Sequence record: PQ589898.1
Reading direction: 5' to 3' (one strand)
From: Escherichia phage Alux-21
Length of the DNA stretch: 42,729 nt
Shown: positions 17,765 through 21,343 of the stretch, piece after piece
Layout: every line of letters starts with the position of its first letter
Position numbering within the stretch: the stretch's first letter is position 1
Position numbers and translations under genes: made by a program
The notes under the pieces: generated by a model
What the model was told of the DNA's origin: nothing
The model's database searches: none
The model's input: the letters and a program-made list of their open reading frames with translations, nothing else

Positions 17765-19320
17765 TGAAACTGTGGCCATTTACCAGAAATAAGCCTGCCG
17801 AACAGGCACAACAGCCGCGCACGCGGCGTTTACCGCTTAACCGCCTTGCGTCCCGTATGTTTACCGGTGCCAGTGTTGACCGTTTGGGCACCGCTTGGGG
17901 TACACAGCCGCTGACGGCTGATGAAGTAATTACCAAAAATCAACGCATCCTGGTAGCTCGTTCCCGCGAACAGGCCGCCAACAATGATTATGCCAAAAAG
18001 TTCCTGCGCCTGTGCCGCACAAACATTGTTGGGCCAAAAGGCGTACTGTTGCAGGCTAAAAGCCAGGACAACACTGGCAAGCTGGACACCCTGGCGAATG
18101 AAGCCATTGAACTGGCGTTTGACGCATGGGGTAAAAAGACCAACTGCGACGTGACCGGGAAATTGTCCTGGCGCGCCATCCAGGCAGCCTGCGTCAACAG
18201 CGTGGCCAAAGATGGTGAATTCTTCGTGCGCCTGGTGTTCGGGGCTGACGCTGGGCCGTGGGGCTTTTCGCTGCAACTGCTGGACCCGCAACGCTGCCCG
18301 GTGGACATGGTTGAAGATCGGCTGCCAAACGGAAATTTCATCCGCCAGGGCATCGAGTTTAACCGCTACGGGCGGCCTATCGCGTACTATTTCAGCACCG
18401 TTGATGAATCGGATGAAAACTACCGCTGGTCTGGCCGTGACTTCGTGCGCGTGCCTGCGGAAGAAATCCTGCACGGCTTTTTTGATGACATGGTTGGCCA
18501 GAAACGCGGCCTGCCCTGGATGGCCACCAGCCTGTTTCGTATGCGCCACCTGGGCGGCATGGAAGAAGCCGCACTGGTCAACGCGCGCGCCGGTGCCAAT
18601 AAAATGGGGTTCATTGAATGGGATGAAAATTCCGCTGGCCCTGAATTTGAAGATGATGACGAACTGATTATTGACAGTGAACCGGGTGAATTCCAGGTGC
18701 TGCCACAGGGCGCACGCGTCAAAGACTGGTCACCGCAATACCCCAACGGCGAATTTGCCGTGTTCACCAAACAAATGCTGCGCGGCATGGCTTCGGGCAT
18801 GGGTGTTGCTTACAACAACCTGGCCAACGACCTGGAAGGCGTCAATTTCAGTTCTATCCGCCAGGGCACGCTTGACGAGCGCGAAAGCTGGAAGGAATTG
18901 CAAGAATGGCTAATCGAAAACCTGCACCAGCCTGTTTTTGACGCCTGGCTGCCTCGCGCCCTGCTGTCTGGCCGCATCACGGTGAAGGGCCGCAGCCTGA
19001 AACCGGAACGCATCGACCGCTACAGCAATATTGAATGGCAGCCACGCCGTTGGGCCTGGATTGACCCGTCATCTGACGTGGCAGCGGCTGAAAAATCCAA
19101 AAACAACATGCTGCAATCTCCTGGCCGCATCATCCGTGAAGGTGGAAGCGACCCTGACACCGTTTGGAAGGAAACCGCCAGCGACGTGGCGCGCATGATT
19201 GAGGCGTACACGCAGCACGGTATCAGCCGCGAAATGGCGGAAAAACTGGTCATGCAAAGCATGGGCATGGACAAACAACTGTTAATGGGGCAGCAAAATG
19301 CAGAAAAACCAGCTGAATAG
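17764..19320 (+). CDS. portal protein (lambda gpB family)
   Basis: 518 aa; position after terminase; N-terminal region and size consistent with lambda-family portal. Confidence 0.8.
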   Translation: MKLWPFTRNKPAEQAQQPRTRRLPLNRLASRMFTGASVDRLGTAWGTQPLTADEVITKNQRILVARSREQAANNDYAKKFLRLCRTNIVGPKGVLLQAKSQDNTGKLDTLANEAIELAFDAWGKKTNCDVTGKLSWRAIQAACVNSVAKDGEFFVRLVFGADAGPWGFSLQLLDPQRCPVDMVEDRLPNGNFIRQGIEFNRYGRPIAYYFSTVDESDENYRWSGRDFVRVPAEEILHGFFDDMVGQKRGLPWMATSLFRMRHLGGMEEAALVNARAGANKMGFIEWDENSAGPEFEDDDELIIDSEPGEFQVLPQGARVKDWSPQYPNGEFAVFTKQMLRGMASGMGVAYNNLANDLEGVNFSSIRQGTLDERESWKELQEWLIENLHQPVFDAWLPRALLSGRITVKGRSLKPERIDRYSNIEWQPRRWAWIDPSSDVAAAEKSKNNMLQSPGRIIREGGSDPDTVWKETASDVARMIEAYTQHGISREMAEKLVMQSMGMDKQLLMGQQNAEKPAE

Positions 19321-21343
19321 CATCATTGGGGCCGAATTTACCCGCAAATCTGACAGCAAAACGCTGCCTGATTTCAACAAAGGCGGGCTGGTGCGCACTA
19401 TGGAAGTGCGCAAGTTTGACACCGAAAAACGCACCGTTGAACTGGCTTTTTCATCCGAAATCGAGGTTGAACGCTGGTACGGTATCGAAATTCTGGACCA
19501 TTCGCCGGAAAGCGTGCGCCTGGACCGTCTGCGTGACGGTGGGGCGCTGCTGGTTGACCACGATTGGACTGACCAGGTGGGCGTTGTTGAATCCGTCAGC
19601 ATTGACGCTGACCGCCGGGGGCGGGCTGTGGTGCGCTTTGGCCGAAGTGCACGCGCTGACGAGATTTTCCAGGACATCGTTGATGGCATTCGCAAGCATG
19701 TTTCCGTTGGCTACCGCGTGTTAGCGGCCAAGCTACAGGAAACTCGTGACGAGTGGCAGGATGTCTACCGCATCACCGAATGGGAACCTTACGAAATTTC
19801 TATTGTGAGCGTTCCCGCTGACGCCAGCGTTGGCGTTGGGCGTTCGTTTGACAAACCCCAAGAAGAACAACGCGGCAGCAAATCCGATACTGCGGGCACC
19901 CTAGAGGTTCCAGCACCAAAAATTACTGAGGACAAGCGATTTATGAACGAAAAGATTTTGCGTGACGCATCCGGAAACCTGGTGCGCGCAATGGTTGACG
20001 AAAAGGGCGACATCACCAAAGTGCTGGAGCTAATCGAGCGCGCAGGCGATGATTCCCGCAACGCTGAACAGCGTGGCCGTGAAGCAGAAAAGGCGCGCGT
20101 GCGCTCAATCACCGAAATGGGCGAGAAGTACAACGCACGTGACCTGGCTTTGAAAGCCATTGGCGAAGGCACCACCGCCGAAGATTTCCAGCGTTCCTTG
20201 CTTGACCACCTGAACAAGCCGAAAGACCCGGCACAACCGGCTGATGGCACCCGTTCAGGCAGCAAACCGCTGTCAGAAATGCCGTCCAGCGTGATTGGGA
20301 TGTCTGACAAAGACATCCGCCGCTACAGCATTTTCAACGTGGTTCGCGCGCTTGCAAACCCGAACGATGCCGCCGCACAGCGTGCCGCAGCATTTGAGAT
20401 CGAATGCAGCCACGCCGCACAGCAGCAATATGGCCGCAGTGCAAAAGGCATCCTGATCCCTGACGATGTTCTGCGTGCTTTCAACGCTGGTGGCGCACCG
20501 AACACCCCGGCAGGTGCGCAAACCGGTTCCAACCTGGTTGGCACTGACTTTATGGCCAGTTCGTTCATCGACCTGCTGCGCCCGCGTACCACCATCATGC
20601 GCCTGGCGCGTACTATGGGCGGCTTGGTGGGCAACGTCGAAATTCCGAAACAGACTGGCGGCGCTACTGCCTACTGGATTGGTGAAGGTGATGACGCAAC
20701 CGAAACCACGCCGACCATCGGCCAGCTTGGTTTGTCACCGAAAACCGTTGCGGCTTACACCGACATTACCCGCCGCCTGCTGATGCAATCCACCCCGGAT
20801 GCGGAAGCCATCGTGCGTGGTGACCTGGTGGCAGCTATCGCGCAGGCGATTGATTACGCTGGTTACTATGGCACCGGCACCAGCAACCAGCCGTTGGGCC
20901 TGGCGAACTACACCGGCATTAATGCGGTAGACTTCGCAGCAGCCAACCCGACTTATGCGGAACTGGTGCAGATGGAAACCGAAATCGCGGCTGACAACGC
21001 TGACGTGAACAACATGGCATATGTGCTGAACGCGCGTGGCCGTGGTGCAGCGAAAACCACGCCTAAGTTTGCCAGTGGTTCTTCCGTTGCTGACGCTGGC
21101 GTGATTTGGGAGCCGGGCAACACCCTGAACGGTTACCGCGCCGAAGTTACCAACCAGGTGCAGGATGGTGACGTGTTCTTTGGCAACTTCGCTGACCTGG
21201 TGGTTGGTATGTGGGGCGGCCTGGACATGACGGTTGACCCGTACAGCCTGAGCAAATCCGGTGGCCTGCGCATTGTGGTGTTCCAGGACGTGGATTTTGC
21301 GGTGCGCCGCGTTGAATCCTTCTGCCTGGGCCGCAACGCGTAA
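19298..21343 (+). CDS. fused prohead protease - scaffold - major capsid protein (HK97-like)
   Basis: 681 aa; N-terminal about 180 aa protease-like, central charged helical region (scaffold/delta-like), C-terminal about 300 aa capsid-like (...GLVGNVEIPKQTGGATAYWIGEGD...GGLRIVVFQDVDFAVRR); followed by hairpin. Confidence 0.75.
   Translation: MQKNQLNSIIGAEFTRKSDSKTLPDFNKGGLVRTMEVRKFDTEKRTVELAFSSEIEVERWYGIEILDHSPESVRLDRLRDGGALLVDHDWTDQVGVVESVSIDADRRGRAVVRFGRSARADEIFQDIVDGIRKHVSVGYRVLAAKLQETRDEWQDVYRITEWEPYEISIVSVPADASVGVGRSFDKPQEEQRGSKSDTAGTLEVPAPKITEDKRFMNEKILRDASGNLVRAMVDEKGDITKVLELIERAGDDSRNAEQRGREAEKARVRSITEMGEKYNARDLALKAIGEGTTAEDFQRSLLDHLNKPKDPAQPADGTRSGSKPLSEMPSSVIGMSDKDIRRYSIFNVVRALANPNDAAAQRAAAFEIECSHAAQQQYGRSAKGILIPDDVLRAFNAGGAPNTPAGAQTGSNLVGTDFMASSFIDLLRPRTTIMRLARTMGGLVGNVEIPKQTGGATAYWIGEGDDATETTPTIGQLGLSPKTVAAYTDITRRLLMQSTPDAEAIVRGDLVAAIAQAIDYAGYYGTGTSNQPLGLANYTGINAVDFAAANPTYAELVQMETEIAADNADVNNMAYVLNARGRGAAKTTPKFASGSSVADAGVIWEPGNTLNGYRAEVTNQVQDGDVFFGNFADLVVGMWGGLDMTVDPYSLSKSGGLRIVVFQDVDFAVRRVESFCLGRNA
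19850..19867 (+). repeat. 18-bp direct repeat GACAAACCCCAAGAAGAA, copy 2
   Basis: Exact 18-mer inside fused capsid gene at the protease/scaffold junction (encodes DKPQEE). Confidence 0.7.

Follow-up and report, generated by a model that had tools for sequence, protein, structure and literature searches.

In phage HK97, the S78 prohead protease gp4 and the coat protein gp5, which carries an N-terminal delta domain, are encoded by two separate genes. Other phages nest one assembly gene within another: in the C/Nu3 pair of lambda, translation of a shorter assembly protein begins in frame within the protease gene, at a start with its own Shine-Dalgarno sequence, and both products share their C-terminus. 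An intragenic late promoter in combination with an in-frame internal start, which gives rise to a shorter co-terminal protein, is found in T4 gene 49. We know of no dedicated internal promoter for lambda C/Nu3 or for the I and Z genes of phage Mu. In Mu, too, synthesis of the scaffold begins in frame within the protease gene, again with a Shine-Dalgarno sequence of its own and a shared C-terminus (PMC4378225), and tripartite protease-scaffold-capsid fusions within one gene are already known (PMC7302621). Here we analyze such a fusion gene in Escherichia phage Alux-21, using the complete 42,729-nucleotide stretch of sequence record PQ589898.1 (the window, to which all positions refer). We consider it likely, based on comparisons with related genomes, that a late promoter inside this gene and a retained start codon yield a protease-free scaffold-coat protein of 49.7 kDa beside the full-length fusion of 74.1 kDa.

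The locus resembles HK97 gp4/gp5 in protease family, coat fold and gene order, and also in the layout of the coat protein, whose N-terminal scaffold-like domain is removed by the protease in HK97. It differs from HK97 in that no stop codon separates the two genes, so that the protease occurs solely at the N-terminus of the coat precursor, as an extension of it, and the coat start has apparently been retained internally. Whereas lambda C/Nu3 and Mu I/Z nest protease and scaffold and leave the coat protein separate, the nested unit described here includes the coat protein, together with a promoter-like element in the coding sequence. T4 gene 49 is an unrelated gene, which encodes endonuclease VII, is read from a gp55-dependent promoter (TATAAATA) and does not act in capsid assembly. 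The protease of Gifsy-2 is of the ClpP type. To judge by the title of the paper that describes it, the 'tripartite capsid gene' of Gifsy-2 has the same single-frame architecture as the present fusion, an architecture that is also shared by the fusions of small actinobacteriophages and by the protein families NF045541 and PHROG 4523 (PMC7302621). In the literature searched, such protease-capsid fusions were mentioned at the annotation level only, and no internal promoter or internal start was discussed for any of them. A combination of HK97 gp4/gp5, nested genes of the C/Nu3 and I/Z kind and Mu-type late promoters was likewise not found described in this literature.

The candidate internal start of the capsid gene

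The methionine M216 of the fusion protein, in the sequence KRFMNEK, is encoded by an ATG at position 19943, 76 nt after the end of an 18-nt repeat, the 18-mer, at the end of the protease region. A first-pass annotation of this DNA had located the methionine about 75 bp past the 18-mer and had raised the possibility of an internal start that produces scaffold-capsid without protease. The location was borne out, and the proposal itself gains support from the conservation of both the ATG and its Shine-Dalgarno sequence in 25 of 25 relatives. These were drawn from 32 loci that keep the scaffold start M-x-x-K-I-L-R-D-A-x-G-N-L-V-R-A, of which 25 are non-redundant, with protein identities down to about 47%. 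In each of the 25, the ATG follows a Shine-Dalgarno match of at least 4 nt (GAGG, AGGA, GGAG or AAGG) at a distance of 6-11 nt, while the background frequency of such matches, determined at 391 other in-frame ATGs of the same open reading frames (ORFs), is 22%. The residues between the 18-mer and the internal methionine are the least conserved of the fusion protein. Moreover, the distance from the methionine to the scaffold motif varies by one or two codons, and there is free variation in the residues that precede the methionine, which indicates that a start signal, and not a peptide, has been kept.

The signal extends beyond these relatives. Among distant fusions of S78 protease and coat protein from IMG/VR (loci L037-L090, 28-46% identity), a Shine-Dalgarno sequence is present at the first methionine after the protease in 71% of 28 cases, against a background of 24%. 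With a conserved internal start and its own Shine-Dalgarno sequence at the boundary of protease and scaffold, the locus shows the sequence features of nested in-frame assembly genes of the lambda C/Nu3 and Mu I/Z type, and a short protein would be produced from it. The simplest evolutionary reading is that the internal start represents the retained start of an HK97 gp5-like gene. As a separate observation, the first methionine after the VPADxxVGxGR end of the protease often has a strong Shine-Dalgarno sequence in the distant fusions (AAGGAGG, GAGGTGA, TAAGGA), and four distant loci (L059, L061, L064 and L067) have no methionine within 70 residues.

The reading frame that contains this start is continuous and was confirmed, by Pfam and PHROG matches, as the single 681-aa fusion of protease, scaffold-like region and capsid protein that had been proposed in the first pass. 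Residues 84-176 match Peptidase_S78 (PF04586; E 1.3e-9, 38.8 bits, above the cutoff of 21), and TIGR01543 remains under its cutoff (37.4 bits, cutoff 59). Residues 410-678 match Phage_capsid (PF05065; E 1e-46, 160 bits, above the cutoff of 24.2), the fusion also exceeds the threshold of TIGR01554 (123 bits, cutoff 27.5), and residues 411-678 are homologous to 8gta_A, the coat protein of roseophage R4C, which has been solved as a T=7 HK97-fold structure (PMC10276861). Over its full length, the fusion matches PHROG 617 (E 5e-212), and it also matches PHROG 4523, which bears the name 'major head and protease protein'. NCBIfam NF045541 scores 170.6 bits against a cutoff of 525, with only profile positions 1-263 of 634 aligned; the fusion shares the architecture of NF045541 but belongs to a different family. 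In an alignment of 11 relatives, H88 (VDHDW) and S136 (VSVGY) are invariant, and by analogy to HK97 gp4 they are putative catalytic residues. The protease and capsid domains are separated by a linker of 32 aa (aa 184-215) and a region of about 190 aa; the first-pass annotation had noted a charged helical linker here. The charge was substantiated, since 37% of the first 115 residues of the scaffold-like region (aa 216-330) are D, E, K or R, but its helicity is weakly supported, by a single-sequence AlphaFold prediction that reached a mean pLDDT of 32 and is unusable for the fold or for domain boundaries. The full-length fusion starts at ATG 19298, within the portal gene, with an overlap of 23 nt between the two genes.

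The five-site motif and its -10 signal

The 18-mer (GACAAACCCCAAGAAGAA) lies exactly where it had been noticed before, at the boundary of protease and linker (19850-19867). Beyond this earlier finding, our analysis shows that the 18-mer is part of a five-site regulon: exact copies start at 17111, 19850 and 31195, one copy with a single mismatch at 24152 and one with three mismatches at 12842, all of them on the plus strand, on which the late genes are encoded. At up to two mismatches, there are four matches in the window, compared to 0.01 expected from shuffled sequences. The flanks of the copies are not homologous to one another, which characterizes the 18-mer as a short autonomous element, and a mobile element or a duplication as the origin of the copies was rejected because of these unrelated flanks. 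A weight matrix built without any window sequence recovers precisely the five sites as its five best window matches, with 21.5-29.0 bits. The sixth-best match, with 15.5 bits, lies on the plus strand within the capsid ORF (20353-20396, TGCAAACCCGAACGATGCC...) and is probably due to chance.

For a comparison across lineages, we used ten complete relatives and 80 IMG/VR loci, which were retrieved by alignment of the fusion protein. All ten complete relatives carry a motif at the same five positions (four in some): at the 3' ends of the activator and large-terminase genes, at the capsid junction, and 5' of the baseplate W and sheath genes. No copy is on the opposite strand. The motif sequence is uniform within each genome and differs by lineage, reading GACAAACCCCAAGAAGAA in the window group, GACACCCCGCACGAAGAA in Arya, GACA(A/G)GCCGCACGAAGAA in KA2-1 (also given as GACAAGCCGCACGAAGAA), GACAAACCCAAAGAAGAA in MQ-4, GGAAATCCCACAAGAGGAA in Persinger and GGCAAACCCACAAGAGGAA in PPpW-3. 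The Pseudomonas-phage motif overall is GG(A/C)AA(T/A)CCCACAAGAGGAA, lineage variants from IMG/VR include GGAAAATCCGCCAGAGG, GGAAAACCCGCAAGAAGA and TGCCATCCCGCACAATGACA, and the family consensus is G-N-M-A-A-N-C-C-S-C-M-A-G-A-R-G. Nearly every IMG/VR locus with enough flanking sequence has a lineage-specific 13-mer 73-99 nt 5' of the internal ATG, which recurs 2-4 more times per locus on the same strand and at syntenic distances, and 0 times on the other strand. The motif thus keeps its place while its sequence changes in concert within each genome, as would be characteristic of a cis element that is read by a phage-encoded factor. The three coding copies, in the activator, large-terminase and capsid genes, share one reading frame (x-x-P-Q/H/K-E-E) and are always located within C-terminal tails or linkers.

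A second conserved signal emerged when 89 non-redundant motif copies were aligned on the motif in a position matrix (block at -15..+2). The 18-nt conserved block is followed by an unconserved spacer of 18 nt and then by an A at +22 (89%) and a T at +26 (84%; background T 13%), which correspond to positions 2 and 6 of the sigma-70 -10 hexamer, its two most conserved positions. This spacing fits a location of the motif at about -48 to -31, so that the GA(A/G)G(A)(A) at the end of the motif would coincide with the position of the -35 hexamer. The layout is that of an activator-dependent (class II, Mu Mor/C-like) sigma-70 late promoter, with a -10 element at promoter spacing and without a -35 consensus. 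The late promoters of Mu (Plys, PI, PP and Pmom via C, Pm via Mor) likewise have a usable -10 element, no -35 consensus and an activator site over the -35 position, and Mu encodes a small helix-turn-helix (HTH) activator just 5' of its lysis and late genes, as is the case here. The structure of Mu C has been solved in an E. coli initiation complex (9l0x). A scan with the sigma-70 consensus found no match at any of the five motif sites; on the plus strand of the late region it returned only three matches, all of them weak (9/12), at 12415 (5' of the activator gene), 27655 and 31051, and in total 9 matches against 14 expected.

In the capsid copy, the T at +26 is the third base of a codon. It is a T in 23 of 24 lineages (18 ACT, four AAT and one GCT), and ACT makes up just 11.8% of the threonine codons elsewhere in the fusion ORFs, whose third-position GC content ranges from 0.62 to 0.84. 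The residue in question, T198, is the sole invariant residue of the otherwise hypervariable linker. Judged by this codon comparison, selection acts on the DNA at a synonymous site within the capsid coding sequence. A terminator-like hairpin at 19818-19839, 5' of the 18-mer, was set aside as a chance product of the conserved VPADxSVGxGR codons, because two changes in ep3 break two of its pairs without compensation and the scan that detected it returned 31 sites compared to 27 expected.

The factor that reads the motif may be the 144-aa candidate activator encoded upstream of the holin gene (Table 1), which presumably binds to it. The recognition-helix region of this protein differs between lineages with different motifs. 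The activator family is distantly Mu Mor-like, with Pfam Mor (PF08765) matched by 16 of 53 homologues of the window protein. The predicted promoter copy of the lysis operon at 12842 is encoded in the C-terminal tail of the activator (aa 121-144), which is predicted to be disordered. Within this tail, the near-invariant N131 and D132 of the family coincide with the -10 region (GAT AAC ACT), and it is suggested that DNA constraints shape the tail peptide.

Three further sites have features of their own. At the baseplate-W copy, the -10-like hexamer CATCAT (24189-24194) ends 7 nt before the start codon, without a Shine-Dalgarno sequence, and a hairpin (GCGGGCA-tcat-TGCCCGC, 24184-24201) abuts the gpW ATG. 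This geometry is common to MQ-4, Persinger, PPpW-3 and phages with the GGAAAATCCGCCAGAGG-type motif, and suggests that the gpW mRNA could be leaderless. The copy at 31195 is adjoined on its 5' side by a strong intrinsic terminator (31170-31185), and the predicted 5' leader of the sheath gene contains the palindromic core TGTGCACA at 31257-31264. Arya, KA2-1 and MQ-4 conserve this core as tgtgtgcaca; the Pseudomonas phages do not. Directly 3' of the capsid stop codon, a GC-rich hairpin is found in 11 of 11 genomes; the stems of MQ-4 and PPpW-3 differ in sequence yet still pair. This hairpin is likely a terminator, an attenuator or a 3' stabilizer of the scaffold-coat transcript, and since only a short T-rich run follows, it may be one of the latter two rather than a full terminator.

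Proposed expression of the fusion and competing explanations

We propose that the capsid gene, a fusion of gp4-gp5 type, is probably expressed as two nested, C-terminally identical proteins. Transcripts from the upstream late promoters (at about 12842 and 17111) would be translated from ATG 19298 into the 74.1-kDa protein, which would be the only source of protease. The 18-mer, together with the GATACT 18 nt downstream, would form an intragenic late promoter of a phage-specific class without -35 consensus, at which the small HTH activator would bind the conserved element of 16-18 bp (about -48 to -31), while the host sigma-70 holoenzyme would use the -10 element. As the upstream element of a conserved late promoter, the 18-mer probably provides the internal product with a transcript of its own. 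This transcript would begin at about 19898 with a 45-nt leader that includes GAGGA, would be translated from ATG 19943 (M216) and would be bounded by the hairpin at 21352-21371, giving a short RNA of about 1.45 kb and of high abundance. How many protease domains enter each procapsid would depend on the ratio of the two products: by co-assembly, the full-length form would bring the protease inside, and proteolysis would then strip everything N-terminal to the coat core of about 29 kDa. We do not claim translational control of this ratio, as the difference between the two Shine-Dalgarno sequences is small; with ribosome-binding sites of similar strength, any excess of the short product would rest on the predicted promoter.

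Several observations weigh against this model. The ribosome-binding sites of the internal and the full-length start are alike and moderate (-5.8 and -4.7 kcal/mol, respectively), the motif has no dyad symmetry, unlike the Mor and C sites of Mu, and the -10-like hexamers are weak (GATACT, GAGACT, GACCAT). The window activator itself falls under every Pfam threshold, and in a fold search and a PDB profile search it showed generic HTH similarity only, which did not link it decisively with either Mor/C or sigma region 4. The frame shared by the three coding copies leaves a small chance of a role at the peptide level. Furthermore, the lineages compared are related, so that our counts represent non-independent events and overstate independence.

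One competing explanation is that the motif acts on RNA, as a site of processing, stability, antitermination or translational control on read-through late transcripts, in which case the internal ATG may still serve as a start. All copies are located on the sense strand of the late genes, 50-114 nt 5' of start codons, and RNA sites would show the same bias and synteny. We nevertheless consider an RNA role improbable. The motif is not accompanied by conserved secondary structure (the predicted leader folds no better than shuffled sequences, z -0.73, and an Rfam scan gave no match at the capsid locus), whereas the second conserved element fits -10 positions 2 and 6 at promoter spacing. One copy, moreover, lies directly past an intrinsic terminator that is strong and would let little read-through RNA pass, and the plus strand of the late region offers no sigma-70-like promoter beyond the three weak matches named above. 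An equally unlikely explanation is that only the full-length fusion is made and every coat subunit carries a protease, as is assumed for small actinophages with such fusions. The methionine and its GAGG would then be left over from a coat gene that was once separate, or kept for reasons of the protein. In many small phages, protease-scaffold-capsid fusions have been annotated as one product (PMC7302621), and the internal Shine-Dalgarno sequence is of moderate strength. A relic would decay, however, yet the ATG and its Shine-Dalgarno sequence persist in 25 of 25 lineages amid hypervariable residues and with a methionine that shifts by one or two codons, and in all those lineages a promoter-like element is located 73-99 nt upstream.

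The conservation of the 18-mer itself might also be sought in its product, the peptide D-K-P-Q-E-E, which could serve in the activator, the large terminase and the capsid fusion as, for example, a cleavage or docking site of the prohead protease. The three coding copies indeed share one frame in every genome, and one of them is placed exactly at the boundary of protease and scaffold, but the shared frame goes back to one coincidence in an ancestor, for which the chance is about 1 in 9. Two of the five copies are intergenic, several genomes have no long ORF in any frame at these places, and conservation is no weaker in the intergenic copies than in the coding ones. In the Pseudomonas relatives, a 1-nt insertion causes the left half of the motif to be read in another frame while the DNA motif is kept, and we therefore regard selection for the peptide as very unlikely. 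Just as improbable is a DNA site with a function outside transcription, such as replication, recombination or packaging. Strand bias and over-representation, which the motif shows, can also be found in Chi-like or packaging signals, but the motif occurs in exactly five copies, each just 5' of a block of late genes and each with a -10-like element at fixed spacing, and the terminase is of the lambda type (Nu1/gpA), which would imply a cos site elsewhere. An intragenic late promoter with a retained coat start remains our preferred explanation.

Genomic setting and significance

The Alux-21 window belongs to Jilinvirus (Iiscvirinae), a genus that was called poorly characterized in the BASEL paper (PMC11990801). 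Its capsid gene is about 95% identical to those of the Escherichia phages HeidiAbel_Bas97, ep3, ECOO78 and ECO1230-10 and of Salmonella phage PT1, 84-86% identical to those of Enterobacter phage Arya and Klebsiella phage KA2-1, and 70-74% identical to those of Serratia phage MQ-4 and the Pseudomonas phages Persinger and PPpW-3. On its 5' side are genes for a lambda-type terminase (Nu1 and gpA), a head-tail joining protein and a lambda-family portal, and on its 3' side P2-like baseplate, sheath and tube genes; the features discussed here are compiled in Table 1. The literature searched contained nothing relevant on the motifs or on Jilinvirus promoters, and no promoter or transcription data for HeidiAbel (Bas97). 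When complete E. coli genomes were searched with 15-35 kb of the window, only 141-bp matches to the tape-measure gene and no close prophage were detected. The window further contains a tRNA at 40785-40858 (minus strand, 70 bits) and a weaker tRNA-like match at 42487-42560 (plus strand, 40.9 bits), which lies just past the integrase gene (41163..42374) and may relate to an attachment site. An 11-bp palindrome, ACAATCATTGT, occurs four times in the window (4838, 22284, 33249 and 36993); four copies are present in each of six close Jilinviruses (the window and five relatives), six in KA2-1, two each in Arya and MQ-4, and none in the Pseudomonas relatives.

Table 1. Features of the capsid fusion gene and of the predicted late-promoter regulon in the Alux-21 window
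Feature	Position	Strand	Details
Candidate trans factor, 144-aa 'late transcriptional activator'	12482..12916	+	PHROG 836; C-terminal HTH of LuxR/sigma-70-region-4 type
Predicted late-promoter copy GACAAACCCCACAAAGAC	12842..12859	+	Last 72 nt of activator gene; 79 nt before holin ATG 12921; -10-like AACACT 12878-12883
Predicted late-promoter copy	17111..17128	+	Last 105 nt of large terminase gene; 114 nt before head-tail joining GTG 17225; -10-like GAGACT 17147-17152
Fusion ORF	19298..21343	+	ATG start; 681 aa, 74.1 kDa; S78 prohead protease, linker, scaffold-like region, HK97-fold major capsid protein
Protease region, aa 1-183	19298..19846	+	PF04586 match; C-terminal boundary at conserved VPADxSVGxGR
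18-mer, predicted upstream element (activator site/-35 region, about -48 to -31)	19850..19867	+	Codes D-K-P-Q-E-E; 28.7 bits with relatives-only matrix
-10-like hexamer GATACT	19886..19891	+	Codons GAT ACT; final T at the third codon position
Predicted transcription start, about 19898	19896..19900	+	7 nt past -10 hexamer; from promoter geometry
Shine-Dalgarno sequence GAGGA	19928..19932	+	10 nt 5' of internal ATG; duplex -5.8 kcal/mol
Predicted internal-start product, M216 to stop	19943..21343	+	Scaffold-like region and coat protein; 466 aa, 49.7 kDa
Scaffold-like (delta-domain-like) region, aa 216-409	19943..20524	+	Begins with conserved M-x-x-K-I-L-R-D-A-x-G-N-L-V-R-A
HK97-fold major capsid protein core, aa 410-681	20525..21340	+	PF05065; 8gta_A E 4e-54
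GC hairpin ATGGCCGC-TTCG-GCGGCCAT	21352..21371	+	Directly 3' of capsid stop
Predicted late-promoter copy, one mismatch	24152..24169	+	Intergenic, 5' of baseplate gene W; -10-like CATCAT 24189-24194; ATG 24202
Predicted late-promoter copy	31195..31212	+	Intergenic, directly after terminator 31170-31185; 89 nt before sheath ATG 31284; -10-like GACCAT 31231-31236

The literature searched does not address how phages with fused capsid genes avoid incorporating one protease per coat subunit. The Alux-21 locus offers a testable answer to this question, namely that the coat gene is nested and has both a promoter and a start site to itself. On balance, we lean towards the broader view that a gene in which protease, scaffold and coat are fused may comprise more than one unit of expression. 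An activator-dependent promoter in the linker codons, which would fix a threonine codon as ACT and impose a P-Q-E-E-like peptide, would, together with a ribosome-binding site and ATG, make the coat protein a nested gene, and the ratio of protease to coat would be set by transcription. The internal start is possibly general to fusions of S78 protease and coat protein in many groups of phages, and a leaderless baseplate-W mRNA may be a further product of the same regulon. For the Iiscvirinae/Jilinvirus group, which includes the BASEL phage HeidiAbel (Bas97), our data define a predicted late-promoter regulon with five sites, a consensus sequence and a candidate activator. With regard to genome annotation, the codons of disordered tails and linkers can conceal promoters, which are recognizable there by motifs that change in concert from lineage to lineage, by synonymous positions that are fixed and by short peptides that are conserved in unrelated proteins.

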